This document shows, piece after piece, positions 6,873 to 54,058 of a stretch of 64,000 bases of DNA. The notes beneath the pieces are model-generated. The model did no database searches and was not told where the DNA came from. It saw nothing but the letters and a program-made list of their open reading frames with translations. Position 1 is the stretch's first letter. Each line of letters opens with the position of its first letter. Position numbers and translations under genes: made by a program. The stretch is taken from the IMG/VR virus record IMGVR_UViG_2875459517_000006, positions 1 to 64,000 of that record. One strand, 5' to 3'. The DNA comes from an uncultured virus (IMG/VR IMGVR_UViG_2875459517_000006). Taxonomy: Duplodnaviria > Heunggongvirae > Uroviricota > Caudoviricetes.

Positions 6873-8273
6873 TTATTTATTCTCTAGCGCGGTCAGGCGC
6901 TTGTTTATAGATTCGAGCTGTTGCGAAAGTGTCGATATATCCACCGCAGCCGTACCGACCTTGATGCGCTTCAGCTTTGCGAAGTCGGCTGCGCTCATTA
7001 AGCCGTCAGTCGTTTCGGTAGCCAGCGAGACAGAAACTTGACCGTCGGGCCCTAATACGATACTCGCCAGCTTCACGTAGTCCGACGAACTCATAAGACC
7101 GTCAGTGGTTGCGTTTGCCCGGCCGTACGTAGGAATCGTCAGCTTTGTCGGATCGTATCCGTCTTCGTAAATCGCGTCTTTTCCGATGGTTATGTTTCCG
7201 CTTATGGCGCTGCCTTTCACTTTCCCAGTTGACGTATCGATAAGCTTGGAGAGCGTACTCTGCGTACGACCTAGTTTTGCGACAGTTTTACTGATGTTCG
7301 GCCGCAATTTTCCGAAAGTAAAAACAGACGGTTTATTCGGATCAGAATAAGACTCGACACTGACAACGCGTAGCTTGGTGCGAAGATCAAATGGTTCTAA
7401 TATGCACCACACGTAATCGCCTTTTCGGATGTCCTGCATTTTCAAAGCTTCGACTTCTACATATGTCAAACTGATAGATATTTCAATCTTATCGGTCAGT
7501 TCTTTCTCTAGCCGCTGCTCAAGTTTCCCCTCGTCCTTTGCCGTGTAAGAGTCGTCGAATATTGGATTTGCGTGTTTAATTCCGTAGATTGCAGCCAAAG
7601 GGCTTTTGTATTCAGCTTCGACCGCATATTTCCCTGTCTTGTCGTCTTTCTTTCCGAAGCCCTTGATAAACGTTTTTATAGAAGAGGTGTCGATTTCCTG
7701 TGTCGGATCTTTTACATTTACTCGATCGCGAATAACATAGTCTGTATCTCTCGCTATCTCCTTCGCGAAGTACACTTTCTTTCCAATACATTCATATTCC
7801 GCCGAGTATTTTTCTTTTATATCGTTTAACAGTCCGAGCGAGTATCCATTCCCAAAATCCTCTACTTCAAATGAATCACCAAGACCATCCGGTACAACTT
7901 CGTAAGAATACCCGGAGCCTTTTAATGCGATATCCAGCATATCTTCGAGGTAAAGTTTTTTCTTTTTCCCCGAAGTCTCGTACACGTAATTTTCTCCGAG
8001 ATCTGAAAATGATCGGTGCAGGGCCGTAATGTCGACCTTTAGTCTCTTGCTCCCGATCGGTACGTACCGTGTCTTTCTGATAACAAATTCCTCATCTTCA
8101 TAAAATAGAGAACCCTCATTTTGTATCAGTGGAAAGGAGTGCACGTTCCGTTCCGTCTGTATAACTGATACATCTAAAGATCTACCGTTATCGATTTCAT
8201 CTTTCTTTGTCACGCTGAAGTCCGTTAATGCTTCGACTTGATTAGCGAGATTTTTCACAAACAGACTCGACAT
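6873..8273 (-). CDS. Baseplate hub / Tal-like tail protein
   Basis: Follows Dit; prophage-tail-like 'DTSSIKT.IKGFG...YGI' motif; two 'A..TTDGLMS' repeats near the C-terminus. Confidence 0.75.
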   Translation of the reverse strand: MSSLFVKNLANQVEALTDFSVTKKDEIDNGRSLDVSVIQTERNVHSFPLIQNEGSLFYEDEEFVIRKTRYVPIGSKRLKVDITALHRSFSDLGENYVYETSGKKKKLYLEDMLDIALKGSGYSYEVVPDGLGDSFEVEDFGNGYSLGLLNDIKEKYSAEYECIGKKVYFAKEIARDTDYVIRDRVNVKDPTQEIDTSSIKTFIKGFGKKDDKTGKYAVEAEYKSPLAAIYGIKHANPIFDDSYTAKDEGKLEQRLEKELTDKIEISISLTYVEVEALKMQDIRKGDYVWCILEPFDLRTKLRVVSVESYSDPNKPSVFTFGKLRPNISKTVAKLGRTQSTLSKLIDTSTGKVKGSAISGNITIGKDAIYEDGYDPTKLTIPTYGRANATTDGLMSSSDYVKLASIVLGPDGQVSVSLATETTDGLMSAADFAKLKRIKVGTAAVDISTLSQQLESINKRLTALENK

Positions 8274-8284
8274 GGCACACCTCC

Positions 8285-9709
8285 CTACGCGTAATAGTGG
8301 AATCTGAAATCAAACGCAATCTCAAAATCCCCGTTCGACCCGCTTAATTCGAATTCATTCCATCCGGGCTCTAGCGTGATAAGCCCGAAATTTGTCTGAC
8401 CGAAGATGCTAACGTTCCCCTTTTTCGCAGTAACCCCGGAAATTTGAATCGCTTCCTTCGCGGTAGATTTGCCCGAAAACGTCCATAGATCGCCCGTCGT
8501 TCTATTTTTGATCGACAATTTATCAGACGCGCCCTTATACGTAATTTTCAAAGGCATGTATCTCGGATCTAGCCGGACGGCTCCCGCGTTGAAAATACGA
8601 AAAGTCTTCGTCTTGTGTTTGTACGAAGGGATATCGTCCGTCAGCCCTTCGCCTATCTGCCATTTGTTCACATCAAACGTAAACGCATCCAGTGTGGTGC
8701 CGACTGATTCGCAATAAGTCGCGGCGCTTTGGAAAGTCAGCGTAAAGTCTCCGAAGCTGCCGATTCTGTCAGGCGTGAATGATGCGCTCAGCTCGACTCG
8801 CCATCGCTTTTTCGGCGTCGCTTCCGAAACTAAAAAGAACTCCTCCTCGCGATGAAGCGCGTGAAAGAGTTCCGCTTGTAATAAATGAAAATCAACGTCA
8901 TCCGCTCCGAGCAAGAGACATTCGGCAGTCAACGTTCGGGCCCCGAAGTTTTTTCCTACTCGAACTAAGCCGTCTCTCCCCGGAATCGTTTCGTAATCGA
9001 TATCGGGAGTGGGCGAAGCAATCTTGAAACTCCGTACAAGGACCGATAAATCGCGAGCCATATCGATTATGCGTCCATCCTTGTAAAGTATCCGGAAGTT
9101 GCTATCCGTAATAGGGACACCGGATGGAGGCGTTGTATAAACGCTTGAAAAAACATCGATAGATACCTCAGGCTCCTCAACGACAACCGGAGCCGGGTTG
9201 TTTGTCTCCGGCGCAGAAGGAGTAGATGGATTCGACGGTGATGGGGCGGTGTCATACTTCGTCAGGTTGTACGTTTCAATAATTCTGTTAAGCTTTGACG
9301 CGTAAGATGGGTCCGTTGCATAACCGGCATCTACTAGCGCAGCAGTCGCTTTCTTGTAGTTTTTCTCACCTACGACCGCCTTATAGTGATTCGGGTCCCA
9401 ACTGACGCCGTTTACGTAAAGCTTCGCAAGGTCTTGCATCGACTCATACCACGTCGGGTACTTCCGGAACTTGGCGTCCACTTGAACGTTCCTTCCGTTT
9501 ATTACTTCCCACGTTTTCATGATGACGTATTTTCCGTTATATTCGCCCTTCACTCCGAAAAGATTCTTTCCGTTAACGGCAAGACCACTGGTACCGTAGG
9601 CGCTTTCTAAGCACCCTTGCGCGATTACAAGACTGGCGAGAATTTTATAATTCACGTATATTTTCTGCGCATCCGGGGCGATTTTCTTTATGAAGTCCGT
9701 ATTTCCCAT
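8285..9709 (-). CDS. GH73 glucosaminidase fused to distal tail protein (Dit)
   Basis: N-terminal 'IAQGCLES.YG.S.LA...NLFGVKG...YATDP.YA.KL'; Pro-rich linker; C-terminal siphovirus Dit-like region ('IPGRDG', 'L.PGWNEF'). Confidence 0.8.
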   Translation of the reverse strand: MGNTDFIKKIAPDAQKIYVNYKILASLVIAQGCLESAYGTSGLAVNGKNLFGVKGEYNGKYVIMKTWEVINGRNVQVDAKFRKYPTWYESMQDLAKLYVNGVSWDPNHYKAVVGEKNYKKATAALVDAGYATDPSYASKLNRIIETYNLTKYDTAPSPSNPSTPSAPETNNPAPVVVEEPEVSIDVFSSVYTTPPSGVPITDSNFRILYKDGRIIDMARDLSVLVRSFKIASPTPDIDYETIPGRDGLVRVGKNFGARTLTAECLLLGADDVDFHLLQAELFHALHREEEFFLVSEATPKKRWRVELSASFTPDRIGSFGDFTLTFQSAATYCESVGTTLDAFTFDVNKWQIGEGLTDDIPSYKHKTKTFRIFNAGAVRLDPRYMPLKITYKGASDKLSIKNRTTGDLWTFSGKSTAKEAIQISGVTAKKGNVSIFGQTNFGLITLEPGWNEFELSGSNGDFEIAFDFRFHYYA

Positions 9710-27411: not shown

Positions 27412-27591
27412 ATGGAGGAAAAATACGAGACTAACGGTATTGATACGTCGATCACTTACGAATACAAGGAATTTCCGGACAAGCGCGCAGGACGATGCGA
27501 TAACTGCGATTATACGCTTTTCAAAAGCTCGGTGAAGAGCGGGAAGTTTCTTCGGGAGTGCCGGCGGTGTGGGATGAAAAAGAATATTTAA
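27412..27591 (+). CDS. 59-aa zinc-finger protein; not in ORF track
   Basis: GGAGG RBS; CDNC...CRRC; TG-n-TATAAT extended -10 at 27363-27371. Confidence 0.65.
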   Translation: MEEKYETNGIDTSITYEYKEFPDKRAGRCDNCDYTLFKSSVKSGKFLRECRRCGMKKNI

Positions 27592-28079: not shown

Positions 28080-28889
28080 TTGTTTATTTCGCCAATGCTA
28101 TTAGAGTCCGCAAAAGACCCGTTCGATTCTGACGACTACATTACGGAAATCAAATTCGACGGTATCCGCCTGCTCGCGTCCAAAGATGACGGCCGTATGT
28201 ACCTCTACACGCGCCACAATAACGAAGTCACCGCTAAATTCCCCGAACTTCACACGCTACAGATACCGGAAGGCACCGTACTCGATGGCGAGCTTATCGT
28301 GCCCGGACCGACAGGCGCCGGAGACTTCGAGGCTATGATGGAGCGGTTTCAATCGCGAAGAAGCTGTCATCCGATAGTATTCTGCGTGTTCGATATATTG
28401 CGACTCGACGGTGTATCAGTTACGTCGAAGCCGTTATATGAGCGGAAGGAATTATTAAACGGACTCGCTCTCGATCATCCTAACGTTAAGATCGTCGATA
28501 GTGTTGCCGGCAATGGCCACGCTGTTTTCGAATTAGCGAAAAGCTCCGGCATTGAAGGTGTCGTTATGAAGCGCGCAGATTCATCCTACGCGGAAAATAA
28601 GCGGTCAGATCGTTGGCTGAAGATCGTTAATTACGAATACACTGACGTTTGGATTACGGGATATCGGAAAGAGGATAATGCGCTCGTTTTAGCGTATGAA
28701 GACGGTGCTTATGCGGGCCTGATGGAGTTTATGCCGCACGCTGATCGGCGGAGATTTCATTCGGAGCGGGCAGACGTAGGAGAAACGGATAAATACGTGA
28801 ATATAGAGCCGATAAAATGCCGCGTGAAGCATCGATTTAAGACGCGCAAAGGACTGCTGCGGATACCTTCGTTTGATTCGTGGCTATAA
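28080..28889 (+). CDS. Minimal ATP-dependent DNA ligase (SPbeta LigB-like)
   Basis: E.KFDG.R, LDGEL, VFDIL, EGVVMK, W.K motifs. Confidence 0.88.
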   Translation: MFISPMLLESAKDPFDSDDYITEIKFDGIRLLASKDDGRMYLYTRHNNEVTAKFPELHTLQIPEGTVLDGELIVPGPTGAGDFEAMMERFQSRRSCHPIVFCVFDILRLDGVSVTSKPLYERKELLNGLALDHPNVKIVDSVAGNGHAVFELAKSSGIEGVVMKRADSSYAENKRSDRWLKIVNYEYTDVWITGYRKEDNALVLAYEDGAYAGLMEFMPHADRRRFHSERADVGETDKYVNIEPIKCRVKHRFKTRKGLLRIPSFDSWL

Positions 28890-28892
28890 ACG

Positions 28893-28927
28893 CAAAAATA
28901 AAGACGCCCGTATAAGGCGTCCTTTTT
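28893..28927. terminator. Bidirectional terminator
   Basis: A-run, GACGCC-loop-GGCGTC, T-run, between the convergent ligase and peptide ORF. Confidence 0.75.
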
Positions 28928-28931
28928 CGTT

Positions 28932-29051
28932 TTATGCTCCGCGAGATGCGCTTTCCGCTGGACCTGCGCCTCTGATAATGCTTTCTAGCGGACTAGCTCC
29001 TCGCGGCATTCCGTATAATTGCGGCCCTGCGCCCGGATTTAATTCTCCCAT
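28932..29051 (-). CDS. 39-aa concatemer of arbitrium-type hexapeptides with no signal peptide; not in ORF track
   Basis: GGAGGTG RBS at 29064-29058; MG-ELNPGA-GPQLY-GMPRGA-SPLE-SIIRGA-GPAE-SASRGA-stop; terminator immediately downstream. Confidence 0.88.
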   Translation of the reverse strand: MGELNPGAGPQLYGMPRGASPLESIIRGAGPAESASRGA

Positions 29052-29076
29052 TCGTCTCACCTCCGATATAGTAAAA

Positions 29077-29898
29077 TTATACCTTCTTGACGTTGAACAG
29101 CGCAATTAACGTTTTGTCCGGCGTCTTTGATTGTCGATAGAATACGTTAGGATTAAACGTGTAGCGCTCCGGCTCGCTTCCGACTTTTATTCGCGCAACA
29201 ACATATTCGCCGTCGAATTTCATCTGCTTCAGGCGCCGGCCAAGCGTATCCGAAGTAACGCCGATCGCTGCCGCAAGCTCCTTCTTATTGAACCAGCGAA
29301 TGCGCTTCGGATTCTTTTCGAAAGGATTTTCGCATAGAGCGTTTGTTTCGTAATGAATGAACGGTAGCATCCGGTAGATCAGTCCGATATCCGTCGCCTT
29401 CACTTCGCTGTACACACGCTTGATCTTCGCGCTGTATAGCTTAACGACTTGCTGACTACCGAAATTACCTTTGAAGTGGTAGCGGTCATTTACGCTGTAG
29501 CAGCCGCCCTCTTCTCGGATAATGTCGTGCTCGGTACAGGCGGAAAGGAAGTCGTAAAAGGTCATCCGTTTTTTACCGAGCTGCAAAACGTCCATCATGT
29601 CCGCAGTGGTCATCGGCGTTTTATTACGGCTGGATTTTATTAGAACACCGTTGTAGTCGACGTAGCACTGAAGCAGCATCAGATAGCCGCACTGTGCCGT
29701 CGTAAGAGCGTCATAGACTTCGTGAATATTAGACATATTGGCGTTTGAGAAATCGCGCCGATCGGCTGTTTTTTCTTGCTGCTGACGAAAGGCCGCGTTT
29801 TGATTGCGGTGCCGTAGCGTGTACCTTTCCGACCAGTCTTCGCCTGTCTCCGTATTAATAACTCGTAATCTCTTCATTATACCGTCTCCTTTTCGCAA
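29077..29898 (-). CDS. RepL-like winged-helix DNA-binding protein (two tandem domains)
   Basis: 'VIN.ETGE' N-terminus, two HTH-like halves ending 'Y.VN..Y' and 'Y.FNPNVFY'; true start probably MKRLR. Confidence 0.55.
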   Translation of the reverse strand: MRKGDGIMKRLRVINTETGEDWSERYTLRHRNQNAAFRQQQEKTADRRDFSNANMSNIHEVYDALTTAQCGYLMLLQCYVDYNGVLIKSSRNKTPMTTADMMDVLQLGKKRMTFYDFLSACTEHDIIREEGGCYSVNDRYHFKGNFGSQQVVKLYSAKIKRVYSEVKATDIGLIYRMLPFIHYETNALCENPFEKNPKRIRWFNKKELAAAIGVTSDTLGRRLKQMKFDGEYVVARIKVGSEPERYTFNPNVFYRQSKTPDKTLIALFNVKKV

Positions 29899-32569: not shown

Positions 32570-33127
32570 CTCGGCAGCCAGCGCATCTAATTTCGCGTAA
32601 AGCTGCTCATACGTCCCATCGTTAACAATTTCGTAATCAACTTCGAAGGTTTGCAGCGCTTTTTCAGTCGGATGATCGAGTGCTGCTAAATCGAAATCGT
32701 CGCCGGCCTTCCGTGCGCGTTCGATCCGTAATTCCTCCGGCGCTGTGATGCGGACGATCGTAAACCCTTCGGCGCGCAGCCGGTCATATTCGTTCTGCTG
32801 CCGAACGTCTTCGATCAGTACGCGATTCTTCAGGGACGGTGCTAAGCCGCAATCACATTTGCGAGAGAAGAGCGCCGTGTATGCGTCGACCTTCGCCATG
32901 CATGCGTCTATCCAGACGTTCTCTCCGAGCATCTTCCGCGCCGCCTGACCGAATTCTTGATAAAACGCGCGTGGCTTCGGCTTTTCTGGTACGGAAGGGA
33001 AAGCGCGATGGAAAGCCGCCTTTAATTCGTCACTGAAGGCGAACTTTTGGAAATCGTAATACATCGATAGATAGCCGGCGGCTTGCGACTTGCCTGCGCG
33101 TAACGGTGCGGTTAGGGCGAGCTTCAT
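32552..33127 (-). CDS. Deoxynucleoside monophosphate kinase
   Basis: P-loop-like A...AGKS, 'F.D.LK', 'Q.FG...R...G.NVW', 'IEDVRQ.NE'. Confidence 0.8.
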   Translation of the reverse strand: MKLALTAPLRAGKSQAAGYLSMYYDFQKFAFSDELKAAFHRAFPSVPEKPKPRAFYQEFGQAARKMLGENVWIDACMAKVDAYTALFSRKCDCGLAPSLKNRVLIEDVRQQNEYDRLRAEGFTIVRITAPEELRIERARKAGDDFDLAALDHPTEKALQTFEVDYEIVNDGTYEQLYAKLDALAAELLGRA

Positions 33128-34167
33128 GGGCGCTCCTCCTCGGTTGCTCCGGAAACAAATTCGATATCGTGCGTGGTGAATTCACCCTCCGCGGCGTCAA
33201 TACGAATATGCCTTATCCCGCGCAATTTCTTACCGTCTTGATACACATCAAACGCATCGCCAATTTTCCGTTCAATAAAAACTAGCGGCGCATCAATCGG
33301 AGCGCACTCTGCGGTCTTCGTCGGCTCCTTCAACCGCGCTAACTCTTCGCCAAGCGTCCGTTTGTCTTTAAACAGCGTGTCGATTTCGTCTTGTAATTTC
33401 GCAATTTTCTTCCGCAGATCTTTAGCTTCGGTTTCTTGAATGTCCGCCAAAGCTCTCGTCTGACCTTTCGAATGAACCGCCGCCTTTTTTAACTCCGCTA
33501 CCTCTTGCGCTAAACTGGCGATAACGTCGATTGGGTCGGCTGGCTTCGGTTCGTCTTCGGTGGATTCGACCGGGACGAGGACGCGATAATACCCGTGAGA
33601 GATTCCGCAAACATATTCCCCGTCTGAATCTTCGTAACCAGCCCCGTCAACCATACTGATGCCTACCGAGGTAACTTCGGTGACAATTCCGTCTGATACT
33701 CCCGATTCATTATTAAATATAACCTCCTCGCCCACTTCCGCCTTGCGATCGGTCAATACGCAACGCCGCATACCGTCAAGACTATAAATGTGAACGATGT
33801 CGGTCGGTTCGAGTACGTGATATTCTTCGCGAAGGATACATCCGCTGGGATTTGCAACCGCTCTAGCATCGTTACTTTCTACGTGATCCTCTCCCGAATG
33901 GAAAACACGATCAACTGTAAAAATGTCGCCATTATCGTACCATTCATCCGGATCATTTTTCTCAACAATTACGATCTTATCGCCAACCTCCGCCTTCCGA
34001 TCGACCTCTACGTATTCGCGCTTGATGCCTCCAAGTGTTTCGTCAGCCAGTACGTGGATTTTAGCGTTTGCGTTTACGATATCCTTCGCCATATTATCGA
34101 TATTCCTCCTTAATATTCGATCATATTCTGATTTAGCTCTTTCCGCCTCAGCGCTGAACCAACCCAT
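33124..34167 (-). CDS. Hypothetical protein with repeated 'RKAEVG' modules and a coiled coil
   Basis: GAGGTG RBS before MGWF; internal repeats. Confidence 0.65.
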   Translation of the reverse strand: MGWFSAEAERAKSEYDRILRRNIDNMAKDIVNANAKIHVLADETLGGIKREYVEVDRKAEVGDKIVIVEKNDPDEWYDNGDIFTVDRVFHSGEDHVESNDARAVANPSGCILREEYHVLEPTDIVHIYSLDGMRRCVLTDRKAEVGEEVIFNNESGVSDGIVTEVTSVGISMVDGAGYEDSDGEYVCGISHGYYRVLVPVESTEDEPKPADPIDVIASLAQEVAELKKAAVHSKGQTRALADIQETEAKDLRKKIAKLQDEIDTLFKDKRTLGEELARLKEPTKTAECAPIDAPLVFIERKIGDAFDVYQDGKKLRGIRHIRIDAAEGEFTTHDIEFVSGATEEERP

Positions 34168-34585
34168 CCGATCACCTCTTCCGCACATATTTCGCAAAGA
34201 CTTGGCGTGATGATTTCGTCGAGAAGTTGGGCATCGTAAGTTCAGCTCTCGCAAGGTCGTCAAGTTCTCGTTTTTCTCGCTTGGTCGGGCATTCGTCTAA
34301 GAAGCGTTCTGTAAGCGCGATTAAATCCTTTCGTGTTATATCCGCCAATACACGGACCCCCCCCCTCCCGTTAATTTATTCCGCCTCCCCAATTGAACTC
34401 AATTTTTTCGAGTTTTTTACCGATCCGAACGACTTCCGAACGTCTCTTTGCAATCTCCTGATCGATAATCCCCGCAGCAGGAGCATGGTCTATAAACCTA
34501 CGCACTTCCTCGAGCAGTTTCCACTCCCGTTTTAAAACCACGTACAAGTGTGCGACTGTTCTCGCATCCATACACAACCCTCCCG

Positions 34586-36140: not shown

Positions 36141-36629
36141 TTATTCGTCCTCCCTATTAACAACTCTTATGAATCTGCCAGTCTCGCTATCTCTTGGTAT
36201 TGTCTTATTCCTATTGTGCAACGAAGAGTGTTCTGATCTAGTAACTAACTCAAGATTACTGACGTCGTTGTTAAGTTTATTTTCGTCTTTATGATGAACG
36301 TGTTCATCCTCTTTCAAAGGTCTTTTTAAGTACTCGGACATTACATACCGGTGCTCGAGAATATATCCATCCTTTTGGGAATTTGGATGATGAGGTTTGT
36401 AGATTAGTTTGTACCCATAACGAGAAATCCTCACTCCTGACTTAAATAAAGGATTTTTAGGACCCCTATTTCCGTAGTTAGGATTACTCGCCCCTCTTTG
36501 GATAAGGCTCTTCCTCTTCGCAGCACATTCTCGGCTACAGGTTTTCCTTCTCGAGTAATGACTAGCCTTTACATACATCTCAGCTCTACATATCTCACAT
36601 GTTTTTACGCGCTTATTACTTAGAGGCAT
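36141..36629 (-). CDS. Free-standing HNH (homing-type) endonuclease
   Basis: Zn knuckle CEIC..CS.EC; 'EHR.VM...L.R.L..DEHVHHKD.NK.NN...NLEL...EH'. Confidence 0.85.
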   Translation of the reverse strand: MPLSNKRVKTCEICRAEMYVKASHYSRRKTCSRECAAKRKSLIQRGASNPNYGNRGPKNPLFKSGVRISRYGYKLIYKPHHPNSQKDGYILEHRYVMSEYLKRPLKEDEHVHHKDENKLNNDVSNLELVTRSEHSSLHNRNKTIPRDSETGRFIRVVNREDE

Positions 36630-36978
36630 CGTAGCCTTCCTTATTCGTCTTTCCTTCTTGTCTATCATGGTTCTCTGCATTTTTCTTCTTATAAATTTCA
36701 TAAATACTCTCAGGATTTAACCCAACTACCCGCGACAGCGATAGTAAGAAATGCCACATATCAATAACCTCATCTTGCAACGCTGCTTGGTTTACTTCTT
36801 TCGGGTTCTTCCACCACTTCCAATTAATCTCGCGTCTGATTTCATCGATCTCTGATTCCATCGCTAAAGTTATTCCAATTACCCACTCATCGTGGGTTTT
36901 ATCGACAGTCCTTTCCGAAATCACTCGTTCATCTAGTGTAGTCTGCATGATAAACATCTCATTCAATCTATCGTTCAT
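36616..36978 (-). CDS. Dimeric dUTPase-like protein
   Basis: 'E.DE...WKWWK', 'E.ID.WHF.LS', 'KN.EN..RQ'. Confidence 0.85.
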   Translation of the reverse strand: MNDRLNEMFIMQTTLDERVISERTVDKTHDEWVIGITLAMESEIDEIRREINWKWWKNPKEVNQAALQDEVIDMWHFLLSLSRVVGLNPESIYEIYKKKNAENHDRQEGKTNKEGYDASK

Positions 36979-38215: not shown

Positions 38216-38472
38216 TTATTCGTCCTCCTTTCCCCGCCCCGTTTGCCTTTATGCTTAACTACACCCAACACTTCCGATGTCTTGATCTCGTCCCGGTATC
38301 CTAATAAGCAATTCAGTATCGGGGAGTCTTTATGGCGAACTTCGAGGTACCCACCTTCATACGCTTGAATAACTTTCGCACTAATTAATGTACCCCCGAA
38401 GTAGTAGATAATTATGTCTCCACGTCGTATACTCTTCTGTCTCTCCTCACTTAAACCGCGCATGACAAACAC
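38212..38472 (-). CDS. Small hypothetical gene between nrdE and nrdF
   Basis: ORF filling the nrdE-nrdF gap; start uncertain. Confidence 0.4.
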
Positions 38473-41400
38473 CCCTCCTGTGTCGTATCTTTAGTCCGTG
38501 CATAATAAAGCGTCTTGATTCCCTTATGATGAGCGTATAAGTCAATCCGGTTCAGATCGCGCGTCGTCATCGTATCTTTCAAGAACAGCGTAAATGAAAT
38601 ACCTTGATCGACGTGCTGCTGAATCGTTGCGATCATATCGACGACTTTGAACATATCCATGTCGTACGCTTCCTTGTAGAAGAACCAATTCTGCGGCGAT
38701 AATCCCGGCATTGGATAATACGTCTTCGAATTGCCGTACGTACGCTCCTCGATGCGCTCCATAATCGGCATGACCGACGCCGTTGCCGACTGCACATACG
38801 AAATAGACCCCGTTGGCGCGATCGCAAGTCTGTACGAATGATAGAGTCCGTGGAGCATAACGTTAGCCTCCAAGCGAACCCAATCGATGCGCTTTGGAAT
38901 TTCAACGCCTTCAAACAGCTTCGCGACCTTCTCCGTTTTAGGACGGAAATCTTCTACGACGTACTTATCGAAATAGCTACCGTCCGCATACGTCGACCCC
39001 TCGAATCCTTCGTACGTGCTGCCGGTTTCTTTCGCTAATTCATTCGAACGCACAAGCGACCAATAATTCACGAGCGCGAAGAATACGTTAGCGAAATCGC
39101 GCGCTTCCTCCGATTCATAAGCGATACCATTCTGCGCTAAATAGCCGTGCAAGTTCATCGCTCCGAGCCCGATCGAACGCATCTCCCGGTTAGCTCGCGC
39201 AACAGCCGGCGCGTTCTTGATATTCGATGTTTCCGAGACTCGCGTGAGGGCATCGACAGACAGCTTAACGATCGTTTCGAAGTCACCGTTTTTCATAACG
39301 TTTGCAACGTTGAGCGATCCGAGGTTGCACGAAATATCGAGGCCGATTTCGTCCGGTTCGCCGTAGTCGGTGTACTCCGATACTTGTGACGCCTGAAGCA
39401 CCTCCGAGCACAGATTCGAAAATTTAACCTTCGATACGTGACCGTTCGCGTGCTCTGCGTTTACGTTACCTTCGAACATGATGTACGGATAGCCCGATTC
39501 AGAACGCAACACGGCGAGCTTTTCGAGAAGCTTGCGCGCATCGATTTTGTCTTTACGGACGGCCGGATTATCGAGGAGCTGATCGTACATCTCTCCGATA
39601 TCCATTTCGTCTAAGTGTTGGCCATACGCTTTGTAAACGGTGTGCGGATAGAAAACGTAAGCCGGCCGATTCTCTCGCGCCAGTTCGATGAATTTATCCG
39701 GGATAACAACGCCGATGGACAACGTTTTGACACGGACGTCTTCATCTGCCGAGATTTTCTTCGTATCAAGGAAATCGTTAATGTCCGCATGGAATACGTT
39801 GAGATAAGCCGCGCCCGATCCTTGTCTTTGCAGACCATTCGGACGTGTTCGCTAGGCACGCCCCGCCTTCCGGCTGCTCCGTGTTACCACGAAGATTAGA
39901 CTATATCTTCGCCCGCTTGGGGCGCCTCCCGTTTCGACCGCCTATCGCTTGCGGCCTACGCCTTTCGGCTAGTCGTTGCACGTTCAAGACGTTTGGTCCA
40001 GATGATTCCACCGTTGCCTACAACAGATTTTATCTACGATAGACTTACTCGCGTATGAGTGCTTAATCCGAACCTCGTTGAGTGAGAGGCCGCTGCGATA
40101 ATCCGAAAGTATTTCCCGCGCTTGTTCCTCAGTGATTTTTGATGCTGGATGACGCGCTCCTTTCCGCAAAAGACCCGTTCTTGATGCATGTTGCGCATTC
40201 TCTTTCGGAGTTACCCATTCTAGGTTTTTGATATCGGCGTTTGCTTTGTTTCCGTCAATATGATTAACCATCGGTAAGTTCTTAGGATTAGGAATAAAAT
40301 GCAGCGCAACCAATCGATGTACCTTCCTCTCGAATCGAACCTTGTTTCGAAAGAGGACTACCTTTAAATAGCCTGATCCGTCAATCTTAGGTTTTACTTC
40401 GGTCATTGTTCTCAAGTTAACCACGCGGCTTAGGCTGGTAATTCCGTATTCAGGTATCCCGTTTATTGGTTTTAGTTCTTCACCATTTTGTAATTCGAAA
40501 GGTATCTTTGTCTTCCTAAGCCCCATACGTATAACTCGATGATTAATCGCTTCCCTAGATACTCCTAATATCTCACCGATTTCTCTAGCACTCATCTTGT
40601 GGTAATTTTCGCGAATAAAATCTTCATCTATCTCCAATTTGTTGTGAGGTTTCCGTCTTGCTTCGCTCATGATTGTCCTCCTTTAGTAGTTTGTGGCCCT
40701 ACCGCTTCGAGGAGTTCCCATGAATTAAAGAGGTTTTCGATCGCCATTACTGACGAAAGGGGCCAATTTAACCCATCTGATCCGCATATCTGAACGCATG
40801 GTCCAGCAACTTCATTACGCCGACTACGCCCTTCGTCGCGTTCTCTACGTCTTTGATCGCCTCGCCTTTCGCCCGCAGCTTCGATAAATTAAGCGACACG
40901 CCGCCGCCGAGCTTCGAAAGCTGCATCGAAATATCAATTGCGCGACTAATATCGTTAAGGGAATCGTTAACCTCGAGCAGGAAGCAGGAAACGAGCTCGC
41001 CCCGACGCTTCCGGCCCGCATTCAAGAACGTCGGCGTTGACGGTTGGTATTCTTGTCGCATCATCAAATCTACGTACTCGATCGCCTTGGCTGCGTCTCC
41101 TCCCGCAAAGAACAATGCGACAATAGAAGCGCGATCTTCGTAGCGTTCGAGAATCTTTTTGCCGTCGTTCGTCTTCAGCGCATAGTCGTTATAGAATTTG
41201 AACGCGCTCATGAACGAAGGGAATCGGAACTTGTGCGCATAGGCCGCCTGATAGACCGCCTTGATTTCGTCGAACGTATAGGCGTCAAGGAATTCGGTTT
41301 CGTAGTAATCGTTCTCGCGCAGATAGTCGAGCTTTTCGCGAAGGTCGTGGAAAAATACGGTGTTTTGATTTACGTAGTCGATAAAATAAGCGCGGACGGC

Positions 41401-41490
41401 TTCGAGATCCTTTTCGAATTGGAACCGGCCGTCCTTCTGTATCATGATTTCGTTATTAAGTTCGATATAACTTGCGTGTTTATTCGTCAA
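38451..41490 (-). CDS. nrdE: Class Ib ribonucleotide reductase alpha subunit, split by an intron: exon 1 41490-40771, exon 2 39830-38451 (699 aa spliced)
   Basis: Exon 1 ends YADQMG and exon 2 resumes QRQGSGAAYLNVFH in frame; SNLCSE, CNLGS, KTLYY and C-terminal CLSC present. Confidence 0.95.
39831..40770 (-). mobile_element. Group I intron (940 nt) in nrdE
   Basis: 5' exon ends in U, intron ends in G; R-like GCAACGACUA and S element AAGAUAUAGUC near the 3' end; contains an HNH ORF. Confidence 0.93.
39984..40670 (-). CDS. Intron-encoded HNH homing endonuclease
   Basis: 'VHRLVA..FIPNP.NLP.VNHIDGNK.N....NLEW.T..EN..H', flanked by HTH-like domains; AGGAGG RBS. Confidence 0.9.
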   Translation of the reverse strand: MSEARRKPHNKLEIDEDFIRENYHKMSAREIGEILGVSREAINHRVIRMGLRKTKIPFELQNGEELKPINGIPEYGITSLSRVVNLRTMTEVKPKIDGSGYLKVVLFRNKVRFERKVHRLVALHFIPNPKNLPMVNHIDGNKANADIKNLEWVTPKENAQHASRTGLLRKGARHPASKITEEQAREILSDYRSGLSLNEVRIKHSYASKSIVDKICCRQRWNHLDQTS

Positions 41491-52762: not shown

Positions 52763-52894
52763 TTAAGCGCCAACCCGAATGTCGGCTACCTTATATCCTC
52801 CTTCGGTGCTAGCTTGATTCTGTGTATCATATTTAAATGCAAATCCTGCTGCCGCCATCACTACGATTAAAGTGGCTAATAATATCTTTTTCAA
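52763..52894 (-). CDS. aimP: Arbitrium pro-peptide AimP (43 aa), predicted mature peptide DIRVGA; not in ORF track
   Basis: AAAGGAGAGG RBS, TTG start; MKKILLATLIVVMAAAGFAFKYDTQNQASTEGGYKVA-DIRVGA; signal peptide plus VA|hexapeptide as in phi3T AimP (VA|SAIRGA). Confidence 0.9.
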   Translation of the reverse strand: MKKILLATLIVVMAAAGFAFKYDTQNQASTEGGYKVADIRVGA

Positions 52895-52912: not shown

Positions 52913-54058
52913 TTAATTTTTGAATTTTAGGAATGGTCTAAGCGCTCGTGAGTCAGCTCCTGCTTTCTCAAGCTCTTTCGCTACTAACCTTGCAAAAAAG
53001 AAGTTTTCTTGACAGAAAAAAGACTCTAGGCAATTATACATTACATCTATTGACTTTTCCGCTGTGTTTTCGAAAAATATTATAAAATTGTCTTTATCGC
53101 CCCTCTCTAATATCGTATGTAACTTCGCTAAAGAAATTTTCCCATTTCTCGCTTTCTGATATGCTCTCAGCCTGAAGTTAGAATCTTCATCAAGCTCAAC
53201 GCCGTGAAAGACTTTAGCGAAATCTAAATTGAACTTTGCCTCTTGGATATACTGCAAATCGCCCACTTCACGCATTAACTCGTAACTTTTCCGGAGGTTA
53301 TACAAACAGACATTTTTATCATCCGGTAAGTACGACATCCCTATAACATAATATGCATCAGATTTCTTTTTCGCGGATATATTTGCATTAATAATGGATT
53401 CAGCAAAATCCCGAGCAGATTTTACATCATTAAGTTGCAAACTAATAGGCGCTAATAATTCACAGACCCTGAACGTTAAGCATTCTTTATAAAAGGTTTC
53501 TCGCGGCCCTAGGTTTGTTATATCCTTCTGGATTTCCGAGACTTCATTTATTATTTTTTGTATGTCACCTTCAAAATAGTTGTTATACTGTCGAATGATA
53601 TTCATTAAGATCAAAAGTGGTTTACTTGTTATATTGTGGAGTCTTTCTATTGCATCCTTCAGTTCAAAGCCGCTCAACGTTCCTACCATATAGTTATAAA
53701 CAATGCGGTACACTTCCACCGTCTGTTTAAGAACTCCGTCAGTATTTTGGTGAAGTAGTAATAATCTTTTTAAAAGGGGAGCGTTTGTAGTAATTGCGGA
53801 GTATTCAAATGCATTTTTTATTGTTTCTGTCCGCGTGATATGCAAACACCATTCTGACAAAATTTCATGACTTCCCTTTCCTGTTTCTCTTGAAATCAGT
53901 TGAGCGAATTTAATAAGTTTCTTGAAACTTATTTTGCCTTTCTTGAAAAAATCCCTATATGCACTTTCACTCATTCCAACAAACTCCATAACATCCGTCT
54001 TTTTTATGTCATCGTGGTCTTCAATAAAATCATGCACCATTTTTGTGATGTATTCCAA
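52913..54058 (-). CDS. aimR: Arbitrium receptor AimR (RRNPP family, HTH plus TPR)
   Basis: 381 aa helical protein with N-terminal HTH, 'AFEYS', C-terminal 'NFFFA.L...EL...G'; directly upstream of a secreted pro-peptide. Confidence 0.88.
   Translation of the reverse strand: MEYITKMVHDFIEDHDDIKKTDVMEFVGMSESAYRDFFKKGKISFKKLIKFAQLISRETGKGSHEILSEWCLHITRTETIKNAFEYSAITTNAPLLKRLLLLHQNTDGVLKQTVEVYRIVYNYMVGTLSGFELKDAIERLHNITSKPLLILMNIIRQYNNYFEGDIQKIINEVSEIQKDITNLGPRETFYKECLTFRVCELLAPISLQLNDVKSARDFAESIINANISAKKKSDAYYVIGMSYLPDDKNVCLYNLRKSYELMREVGDLQYIQEAKFNLDFAKVFHGVELDEDSNFRLRAYQKARNGKISLAKLHTILERGDKDNFIIFFENTAEKSIDVMYNCLESFFCQENFFFARLVAKELEKAGADSRALRPFLKFKN

Follow-up and report, generated by a model that had tools for sequence, protein, structure and literature searches.

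In arbitrium, the model case of communication between viruses, a hexapeptide signal from the precursor AimP acts on the receptor AimR. The AimR of SPbeta is described as binding its hexapeptide in an extended form, with the free amine held by Q299/E300 and the free carboxylate by R228 (PMC6458997). Signal binding is reported to stop the activation of aimX and to favour lysogeny, and arbitrium peptides to inactivate the cognate AimR and some non-cognate AimRs; non-cognate peptides, whether added or naturally made, gave more lysogeny and less induction of the receiver, and a signal-emitting prophage is described as gaining when a superinfecting phage lysogenises rather than lyses (Manley et al. 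2025, bioRxiv 10.1101/2025.10.13.681967; Gallego-del-Sol et al. 2026, PMC13220667). Here, a short open reading frame (ORF) is described from an uncultured virus of the Caudoviricetes, IMG/VR record IMGVR_UViG_2875459517_000006; the stretch analysed, referred to as the window, comprises 64,000 of the 64,923 bases of this record. The ORF (28932..29051 on the minus strand, stop codon included) starts with ATG at 29051, ends with TAA at 28934-28932 and, read directly from the minus strand, encodes the 39-aa leaderless peptide MGELNPGAGPQLYGMPRGASPLESIIRGAGPAESASRGA, in which four hexapeptides ending in Gly-Ala are joined by short spacers. It is considered probable, on comparative grounds, that this array would act as a set of forged rival signals on SPbeta-type AimRs.

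The array resembles a clade-2 AimP in its hexapeptide end products and in a last unit that terminates at the stop codon. Unlike an AimP, it lacks a Sec leader, does not lie beside aimR and holds several different units in one ORF; these units belong to other phages while the carrier's own signal is omitted, no Val-Ala site is present, and the codons are unrelated to those of natural aimP genes. Judged by its sequence, the array therefore fails the AimP features tested, namely a position beside aimR, possession of a leader, one unit only, placed behind Val-Ala, and pairing with a cognate receptor. Multi-copy peptide precursors, such as yeast alpha-factor, neuropeptide polyproteins and Phr precursors with several candidate peptides, likewise hold several units in one product with short spacers resembling processing sites. 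Such precursors carry secretion signals, repeat their own signal and use known processing enzymes, whereas the units of the array differ among themselves and belong to others, and no leader is present. The inhibitor peptides encoded by enterococcal pheromone plasmids are also small peptides of a mobile element that meddle with a peptide-signal receptor; they are secreted, single and antagonists of the element's own receptor, whereas the array peptides would be agonist copies for the receptors of other elements. Leaderless communication peptides (LCPs) of RopB/Rgg-type receptors share with the array their short, leaderless form and the receptor superfamily, and they act between cells, but as described in PMC10518010 each is a single peptide with its own adjacent receptor, in contrast to the multi-unit array with no cognate receptor. 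In arbitrium cross-talk, one phage's peptide drives another phage into lysogeny to the benefit of the emitter, an outcome that is only proposed here; the cross-talk described there is a by-product of similar secreted AimPs, whereas the array is a separate, receptor-less gene with exact copies of several rivals' signals (bioRxiv 10.1101/2025.10.13.681967; PMC13220667).

The sequence-only reading that first pointed to this ORF knew of no earlier description of such a gene, and full-text searches agree: no such forgery gene was found in about 8.1 million open-access full texts and 0.36 million preprints, nor in the examined parts of bioRxiv 10.1101/2025.10.13.681967 and PMC13220667. A literature match to the junction strings was an artefact of 'GMPRGA' followed by the superscript 'Spb'. 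The array cassette is rated as a new kind of phage gene.

The units were matched by eye to Table S2 of PMC13220667, which lists 281 clade-2 systems and 26 proposed mature peptides. After Met-Gly, the window's peptide carries a head unit, ELNPGA (29028..29045), followed by the SPbeta signal GMPRGA (28995..29012; 32 of the 281 systems) and by two further clade-2 signals, SIIRGA (28965..28982; 17 of 281) and SASRGA (28935..28952; 42 of 281), all on the minus strand and the last abutting the stop codon. The sequence-only reading had taken all four hexapeptides for foreign signals; this stood for the three catalogued units and not for ELNPGA, which lies outside the catalogue. Its statement that SIIRGA and SASRGA are natural signals was borne out by Table S2, by the list of named clade-2 signals (SAIRGA, SIIRGA, SASRGA, SPSRGA, GIVRGA, GVVRGA and GMPRGA) in bioRxiv 10.1101/2025.10.13.681967 and PMC13220667, and by 26 natural AimPs that were located beside phi3T-like AimRs in IMG/VR proviruses of 120-130 kb (27 loci, one of them a fragment). 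These AimPs ended in SAIRGA (8), SASRGA (7), SIIRGA (6) or SPSRGA (5); all 26 had a signal peptide, and the hexapeptide was preceded by Val-Ala every time. In a six-frame scan of the window, GMPRGA, SIIRGA and SASRGA occurred once each, in the array ORF only. The same scan counted 39 RGA tripeptides against about 52 expected from composition, and the sole cluster of three within 40 aa was the array ORF.

The array was found to belong to a family. A protein search with a 57-aa, TTG-extended version of the frame returned 3 clusters comprising 8 sequences, and the window's peptide was found identical on 6 contigs of the protein collection. An IMG/VR search with one array protein gave 6 loci, 4 with the ORF and 2 without, while an exact pattern of promoter and ribosome-binding site (RBS) gave 12 IMG/VR loci, the ORF being present in 12/12. 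Relatives of the 273-aa gene lying upstream of the array were recovered at 49 loci, with the array directly downstream at 17, the terminator only at 28 and too little sequence at 4 (17 of 45 assessable). With a looser RBS-start pattern, 54 loci were obtained; arrays were present at 22 of them, the other 32 were unrelated, and no new type appeared. The cassette is carried by 22 IMG/VR prophage contigs in 16 distinct DNA versions, the window included, and the distinct peptides number 20 when protein-database hits are counted.

Across these versions the units change while the frame around them does not. The window holds three catalogued units and the variants one to three, as in M-GMPRGA-SPLE-GIVRGA, M-GMPRGA-SPLE-SIVRGA, M-GMPRGA-NPLE-SAIRGA-GPAE-SASRGA, M-GMPRGA-NPLE-SAIRGA-SPSRGA, MGEIRPGA-SPLE-SASRGA-SPSRGA and MGEIKPGA-NPLE-SIIRGA-GPAE-SASRGA. 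A divergent branch, whose upstream protein is about 87% identical, reads M-GFTVGA-KELPKPKY-GFPRGA, with the -10 box, RBS, M-G start and RGA-TAA-terminator end unchanged. The spacers are SPLE, NPLE, SSLE, SPLQ, GPAE, GPTE, GPQLY and KELPKPKY, and in some variants the units abut; a unit is preceded by Glu, Gln, Tyr, the initiator Met or another unit, never by Val-Ala. The expectation that unit number and identity would vary among relatives while the frame and xxxRGA were kept was confirmed by this comparison, with the RBS and terminator fixed as well, and the comparison supports, at the level of sequence, the spoofing of several competitors' signals.

The correspondence to the catalogue was close. 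The 16 distinct DNAs contain 37 units in total, of which 35 are in the catalogue: GMPRGA (10), SASRGA (8), SPSRGA (5), SAIRGA (4), SIIRGA (4), GIVRGA (2), GFPRGA (1) and GFTVGA (1). The uncatalogued two, SIVRGA and GPVRGA, were found once each and are each one residue off catalogued signals; GMARGA was seen in one protein-database variant. Table S2 assigns GFTVGA to 23 systems, SAIRGA to 19, SPSRGA to 8, and GFPRGA and GIVRGA to 5 each, in addition to the counts given above (PMC13220667), and the eight catalogued signals found in arrays cover 151 of the 281 systems. Of the 8000 xxxRGA peptides that could exist, the catalogue contains only 13, and 7 of the 10 xxxRGA types of the arrays are among them, for which a rough binomial gives about 4e-18, to be taken as an order of magnitude only since descent is shared.

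The codons indicate that it is the peptide that is kept. All 36 xxxRGA units retain RGA, with Arg written by 5 codons from both of its families, Gly by 2 and Ala by 4, and GMPRGA has 6 synonymous spellings in its 10 occurrences among the distinct DNAs. Terminal SASRGA is spelled AGC GCA TCT/TCA CGC GGA GCA and internal SASRGA is spelled AGC GCG/GCA AGT AGA/AGG GGC GCx, so that Ser3 and Arg4 come from different codon families. Between the window and the copy at locus L014, the stretch GMPRGASPLES shows 5 synonymous and 0 non-synonymous changes, while the L014 head unit is decayed. The natural genes of SPbeta-like proviruses are spelled differently again, with TCA GCT AGC AGA GGA GCA for SASRGA and TCx CCA AGy CGx for the start of SPSRGA; for SASRGA, SPSRGA, SAIRGA and SIIRGA alike, the natural aimP codons differ from those of the arrays. 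Because the codons differ and the Val-Ala context is absent from the arrays, the units are not simply DNA copies, and the match between array and signal is, as far as these alignments tell, convergent at the peptide level and not at the DNA level. Identity at the peptide level is a prediction of mimicry, not of gene-fragment capture or chance. It is regarded as nearly certain that the ORF is genuine and that selection acts on the peptide it encodes.

The cassette comprises a -10 box, a strong RBS, the leaderless ORF and a terminator. The RBS GGAGGTG (29058..29064, minus strand) lies 6 nt 5' of the ATG and is present in every variant, including the divergent GFTVGA/GFPRGA type. A perfect -10 box, TATAAT (29076..29081, minus strand), overlaps the TAA stop of the upstream gene; in the alignment of loci it is conserved wherever the cassette is present and missing where the cassette is missing. 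The -35 element, TTGCGC with an 18-nt spacer, is weak. The terminator scan called an intrinsic terminator on the minus strand (28893..28924) with a 10-pair hairpin and a T-run at 28924-28900. Since the scan also calls the hairpin on the plus strand, the terminator is deduced to be shared with the convergent ligase gene, and it is conserved across loci. The description of a minus-strand ORF with a strong RBS 6 nt before its ATG and a terminator behind it thus agreed with the direct reading and the scan. The statement that the units form no simple DNA tandem repeat was likewise upheld, as a repeat scan found none in the ORF and the three RGA triplets differ in codons. Supply of the array product by read-through from the upstream gene was rejected, the ATG being out of frame and 25 nt past the upstream stop, and the upstream gene varying between contexts. 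Cassettes of relatives are contained in contigs from the RNA libraries of two studies (X16 and X17 of one, 3.9 and 2.6 kb; X18 of the other, 523 nt), although such contigs show neither transcription, strand nor ends and DNA carry-over is possible. Contig X18 stops at 29071, 5 nt downstream of the -10 box, a weak hint given that contig ends are uninformative.

The phage has an arbitrium pair of its own, about 24 kb from the array. Its AimR (52913..54058, minus strand) matches PF22871 (E 1.3e-26) and phrog_1728, and the AimP next to it (52763..52894, minus strand) has a signal peptide and the C-terminal hexapeptide DIRVGA. The array has no hydrophobic leader, judged by eye, in either the 39-aa peptide or the 57-aa TTG-extended frame; no RRNPP-type receptor adjoins it, the neighbours being the phrog_9501 gene and a DNA ligase gene; and DIRVGA is not among its units. 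On these three points, established by eye for the leader, by Pfam and PHROG scans for the receptor and by reading of the AimP for the signal, the earlier account was correct. No second AimR-like receptor was found among the 34 ORFs of the window scanned against Pfam and the 15 scanned against PHROGs, and a 379-aa ORF at 33124-34263 was rejected as a receptor, being unlike AimR. In this phage family, 13 of 14 own AimPs have a TTG start, the window's included (5 of 6 in another set), and annotation pipelines may overlook AimPs of this kind.

Omission of the carrier's own signal was found to be general, the own signal being in the array in 0 of the 14 array-bearing records that have an AimR. The own signal is DIRVGA in six (the window, G003, G007, G009, G018 and G019), ..NQLGG in three (G002, G006 and G016), ..NAIGG in two (G001 and G005), EIKVGG in G010, ELRPGG in G008 and SAIRGA in the phi3T-like G004 (locus L016). 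Two further carriers, G015 and G017, gave no AimR match.

Thirteen of the 14 loci compared are syntenic with the window, 2 of them without the cassette and 11 with it in proviruses of 64-73 kb or fragments; at the fourteenth, L016, the cassette is present and only the cassette region is shared with the window. The cassette is an accessory of a 65-72 kb temperate Bacillus phage family, with a single occurrence in a phi3T-like phage. Among named phages, the closest relatives are 268TH007 and 268TH002, presented in PMC9476937 as temperate phages of Bacillus subtilis; neither has the cassette, nor does phi18-2. The phi3T-like prophage of L016 (G004) matches phi3T and BUCT083 at 96-97% identity across 60% of 16 kb, and in it a 1.4-kb block including the cassette, 98.5% identical to the 72-kb phage L013, stands in place of phi3T sequence. 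Because L016 and L013 share this block, the cassette is deduced to move between phage families. It was found in two upstream and at least three downstream contexts, and at loci without it (L017 and many others) the upstream gene is followed directly by the same terminator. The cassette may be a phage moron: its terminator was called, it is present or absent in several contexts and its transfer to a phi3T-like phage is shown, while its promoter is only a conserved TATAAT with a weak -35 and no call by the scan. At L085, around position 2319, the -10 box is joined directly to the sequence otherwise found behind the array stop, as if the ORF had been cleanly lost between two short stretches of identical sequence. 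A 59-aa Cys-rich ORF near the cassette region (27412-27591, plus strand; phrog_8829) is common to the 65-kb family and SPbeta-type phages (8200-8379, minus strand, in L016; phi3T_82 in L050) and may be a homology anchor for exchange of the cassette block. Two IMG genomes, 2811995041 (L068 and L072) and 2811995017 (L063 and L078), have two prophages of this family per host genome; one of these genomes has an identical GFTVGA/GFPRGA array in both prophages and the other has this array in one prophage only.

The arbitrium locus of G004 is itself altered (L033 278-2547). Its phi3T-type aimR is interrupted by a 372-aa ORF, taken to be a transposase from its position only; beyond it lie the 236 C-terminal residues of AimR and an intact AimP with SAIRGA at its end. 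This phage would emit a signal that it no longer hears, while carrying a GMPRGA/GIVRGA array.

If the units are forged signals, the following course is proposed. The array would be translated and its units freed by proteolysis, each freed hexapeptide then being chemically the same as the rival's own signal. Identical to the ligand of the rival AimR, it would bind that receptor, stop the activation of aimX and send the rival into lysogeny or keep it as a prophage, while the carrier's own, unrelated AimR-AimP pair would be unaffected. Initiator Met is removed before Gly, and this removal would bare the amine of the first unit, GMPRGA or GFTVGA, in the 9 of 20 array types in which it follows Met directly. 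The C-terminus of the last unit would be given by the stop codon with no protease required; in the window, SASRGA terminates there and its C-terminus is accordingly free without cleavage. The remaining junctions require cleavage on the C-terminal side of Glu, Gln or Tyr and also behind the Ala that ends RGA, and the conserved x-Pro-x-Glu spacers look, from their sequence, like processing sites.

Where the units would act is a separate matter. The enzymes secreted by Bacillus include a glutamyl endopeptidase and proteases of the subtilisin type, by which Phr-type peptides are matured behind Ala, and these would suit release at lysis or a leaderless route like that of the LCPs (PMC10518010), followed by re-import. 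A course by release at lysis or leaderless export, with extracellular maturation by host proteases and re-import, is given an even chance. Maturation and action inside the producing cell, as a private protection of the lysogen against incoming rivals, is held more tentatively, with a small remainder left for other places of action; it would require cytoplasmic peptidases, and it fits because there is no leader, the cassette has its own -10 box and terminator, and the benefit would be private to the lysogen. In its full form, advanced with the same reserve, the forged signals would not leave the lysogen or infected cell that makes them and would force the listed SPbeta-type phages, whether incoming or co-resident, to be dormant, a superinfection protection by faked quorum signal rather than by DNA blocking. 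The first unit would then be obtained by Met removal, the last by the stop codon and the others by host peptidases; the unit list would evolve by point mutation and unit shuffling, following the rival signals that circulate locally, and the pressure of the arrays would in turn drive the diversification of arbitrium signals.

Several observations count against forged signalling. Internal units would be inert until cut on both sides, because AimR needs a free amine and a free carboxylate (PMC6458997). The array junctions (Glu or Tyr before the unit and Ala-Ser/Gly/Asn-Pro after it) are unlike the Val-Ala of natural precursors, the lack of a secretion leader closes the ordinary export route, and no protease gene was found near the array in the Pfam and PHROG scans of window ORFs. 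The consensus promoter scan made no call on the TATAAT of the cassette, which is attributed to the weak -35. GFGRGA, the commonest catalogued signal (56 of 281), was in 0 of 20 arrays, and neither ELNPGA nor its variants match any signal in the Table S2 catalogue; the head unit of G008, EIKPGA, resembles that phage's own ELRPGG. The L014 copy is degenerate (ELKPGG, GPVRGV), and for this reason some array copies may be decaying.

A further point concerns co-residence. Where a clade-2 system lies in the same provirus record or genome as an array, its signal was present in the array in 0 of 3 cases, too few to weigh; for arrays of 2-3 units, such an outcome is estimated to arise by chance about 1 time in 4. 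The cases were G004, with its own SAIRGA and a GMPRGA/GIVRGA array; G018, with a neighbouring GFGRGA system and a GMPRGA/SAIRGA/SASRGA array; and genome 2860856459, with a SIIRGA prophage and a GMPRGA/SASRGA/SPSRGA array. These cases consequently give no support for the silencing of a co-resident prophage. In the 95.5-kb record G018, the neighbouring system (L100, 66633-70511) consists of a second, clade-2-like AimR (E 2.8e-72, ORF of 320 aa), about 35 kb from the cassette, and an AimP ending in GFGRGA; this AimR may be truncated and the system may be a separate element beside the phage.

Among other explanations, a host-directed small peptide fared best, though it is considered improbable. 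Here Bacillus physiology, for instance sporulation, colony development or Opp/Rap-type sensing, would be changed by the released hexapeptides or by the peptide as a whole. Bacillus subtilis is reported to sense SAIRGA of phi3T, a peptide that promotes its sporulation (10.64898/2026.08.23.746533), and the structure and conservation of the cassette are compatible with any peptide function. A host target leaves unexplained, however, why the units follow eight rival signals, including GFTVGA and GFPRGA on the other branch, and why the own signal is always omitted.

Slightly less credible is the idea of an additional, leaderless signal directed at the phage's own kin, with the array or its head unit addressing AimRs of the 65-72 kb family or an unrecognised receptor in the same genome. 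Leaderless communication peptides are described in other Firmicutes (PMC10518010), and the heads ELNPGA, EIKPGA, EIRPGA and ELKPGG (a further variant is EIKLGA) resemble the family signals ELRPGG and EIKVGG, so the head unit may target kin phages, or it may be a remnant. A search for natural signals like the head unit gave 1 near-identical protein with the AimP of G008 and 4 near-identical loci with its AimR. Against a signal for kin, 9 of the 20 array types have no head, the RGA units are SPbeta-type and not family signals, and no second receptor was found in the ORF scans of the window, while two carriers lack even an AimR match.

It is a little more doubtful still that the array is a blocker rather than a mimic, the uncut peptide either acting as a sponge that soaks up proteases or the Opp permease or occupying AimR without activating it, with rivals left deaf and lytic. 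In its favour, no route of processing can be recognised, the junctions are unlike the natural ones, and a polyvalent substrate could compete for processing or import. A sponge, however, needs no exact copies of whole signals with free ends at both array termini; exact identity and synonymous-only change in the units point instead to the release of authentic ligands, and competition for shared proteases or Opp would deafen the carrier's own arbitrium too. A non-functional origin, with an ORF arisen by chance or left over from decay at a variable intergenic site, accords with the lack of the array in 28 of 45 assessable relatives as well as in phi18-2, 268TH007 and 268TH002 and with the degenerate look of the L014 copy, but is judged very improbable in view of the frame, RBS and terminator preserved in 22 contigs, the 35 of 37 units that are catalogued signals, the synonymous-only change at 36 RGA ends and the different codons of the natural genes.

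Should forged signalling be true, phages would hold, beyond leaky look-alike signals, a mobile and fast-evolving gene containing solely the signals of other phages, a case of deliberate deception between viruses. It would supply a concrete selective force for AimP-AimR diversification and a new type of prophage-borne host protection. The 20 arrays are a natural construct set for asking which signals matter in which community, and they raise the biochemical question of how a leaderless hexapeptide string is cut into exact ligands. A possible use would be as compact tools that hold SPbeta-type prophages silent in industrial Bacillus strains. The array gene is too short for gene callers.

Other searches returned no further arrays. 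A tblastn search of 50,697 phage records with the 39-aa peptide had no match up to an E of 10; a blastn search with the region returned the upstream gene only, in phi18-2, 268TH007 and 268TH002, which are without the array ORF; and the cassette pattern had no match in the metagenome collection. A back-translated GMPRGA-xP...RGA pattern matched viral records once, inside a long ORF of a high-GC contig, and its 10 matches in non-Bacillus, mostly high-GC genomes were taken as chance from titles alone. The loose RBS pattern also matched an 18-codon ORF, MGLPC[SP]ARTSRLTVSF[SN]L, in 14 unrelated viral contigs of 39-49% GC (L131, L133, L134 and 11 others), which probably sits inside conserved sequence of another phage group.

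The genes flanking the cassette were assigned as follows. The upstream gene (29077..29898, minus strand, 273 aa) matches phrog_9501 (E 2e-122), to which no function is assigned; it has no Pfam match, is not a TPR receptor and carries the label 'AsnC family protein' in phi18-2. Convergent to the array is an ATP-dependent DNA ligase gene (28080..28889, plus strand; PF01068, E 1.6e-29). Elsewhere in the window, the large subunit of ribonucleotide reductase (38451-41490, minus strand) is split into an ORF with the N-terminal domains and the start of the barrel (40768-41490) and one with the remaining barrel (38451-39722). An HNH endonuclease ORF (39984-40670) lies between the two, and the arrangement resembles an insertion of the intron or intein type that carries a homing endonuclease. 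A second HNH ORF, at 36141-36701, adjoins thyX.

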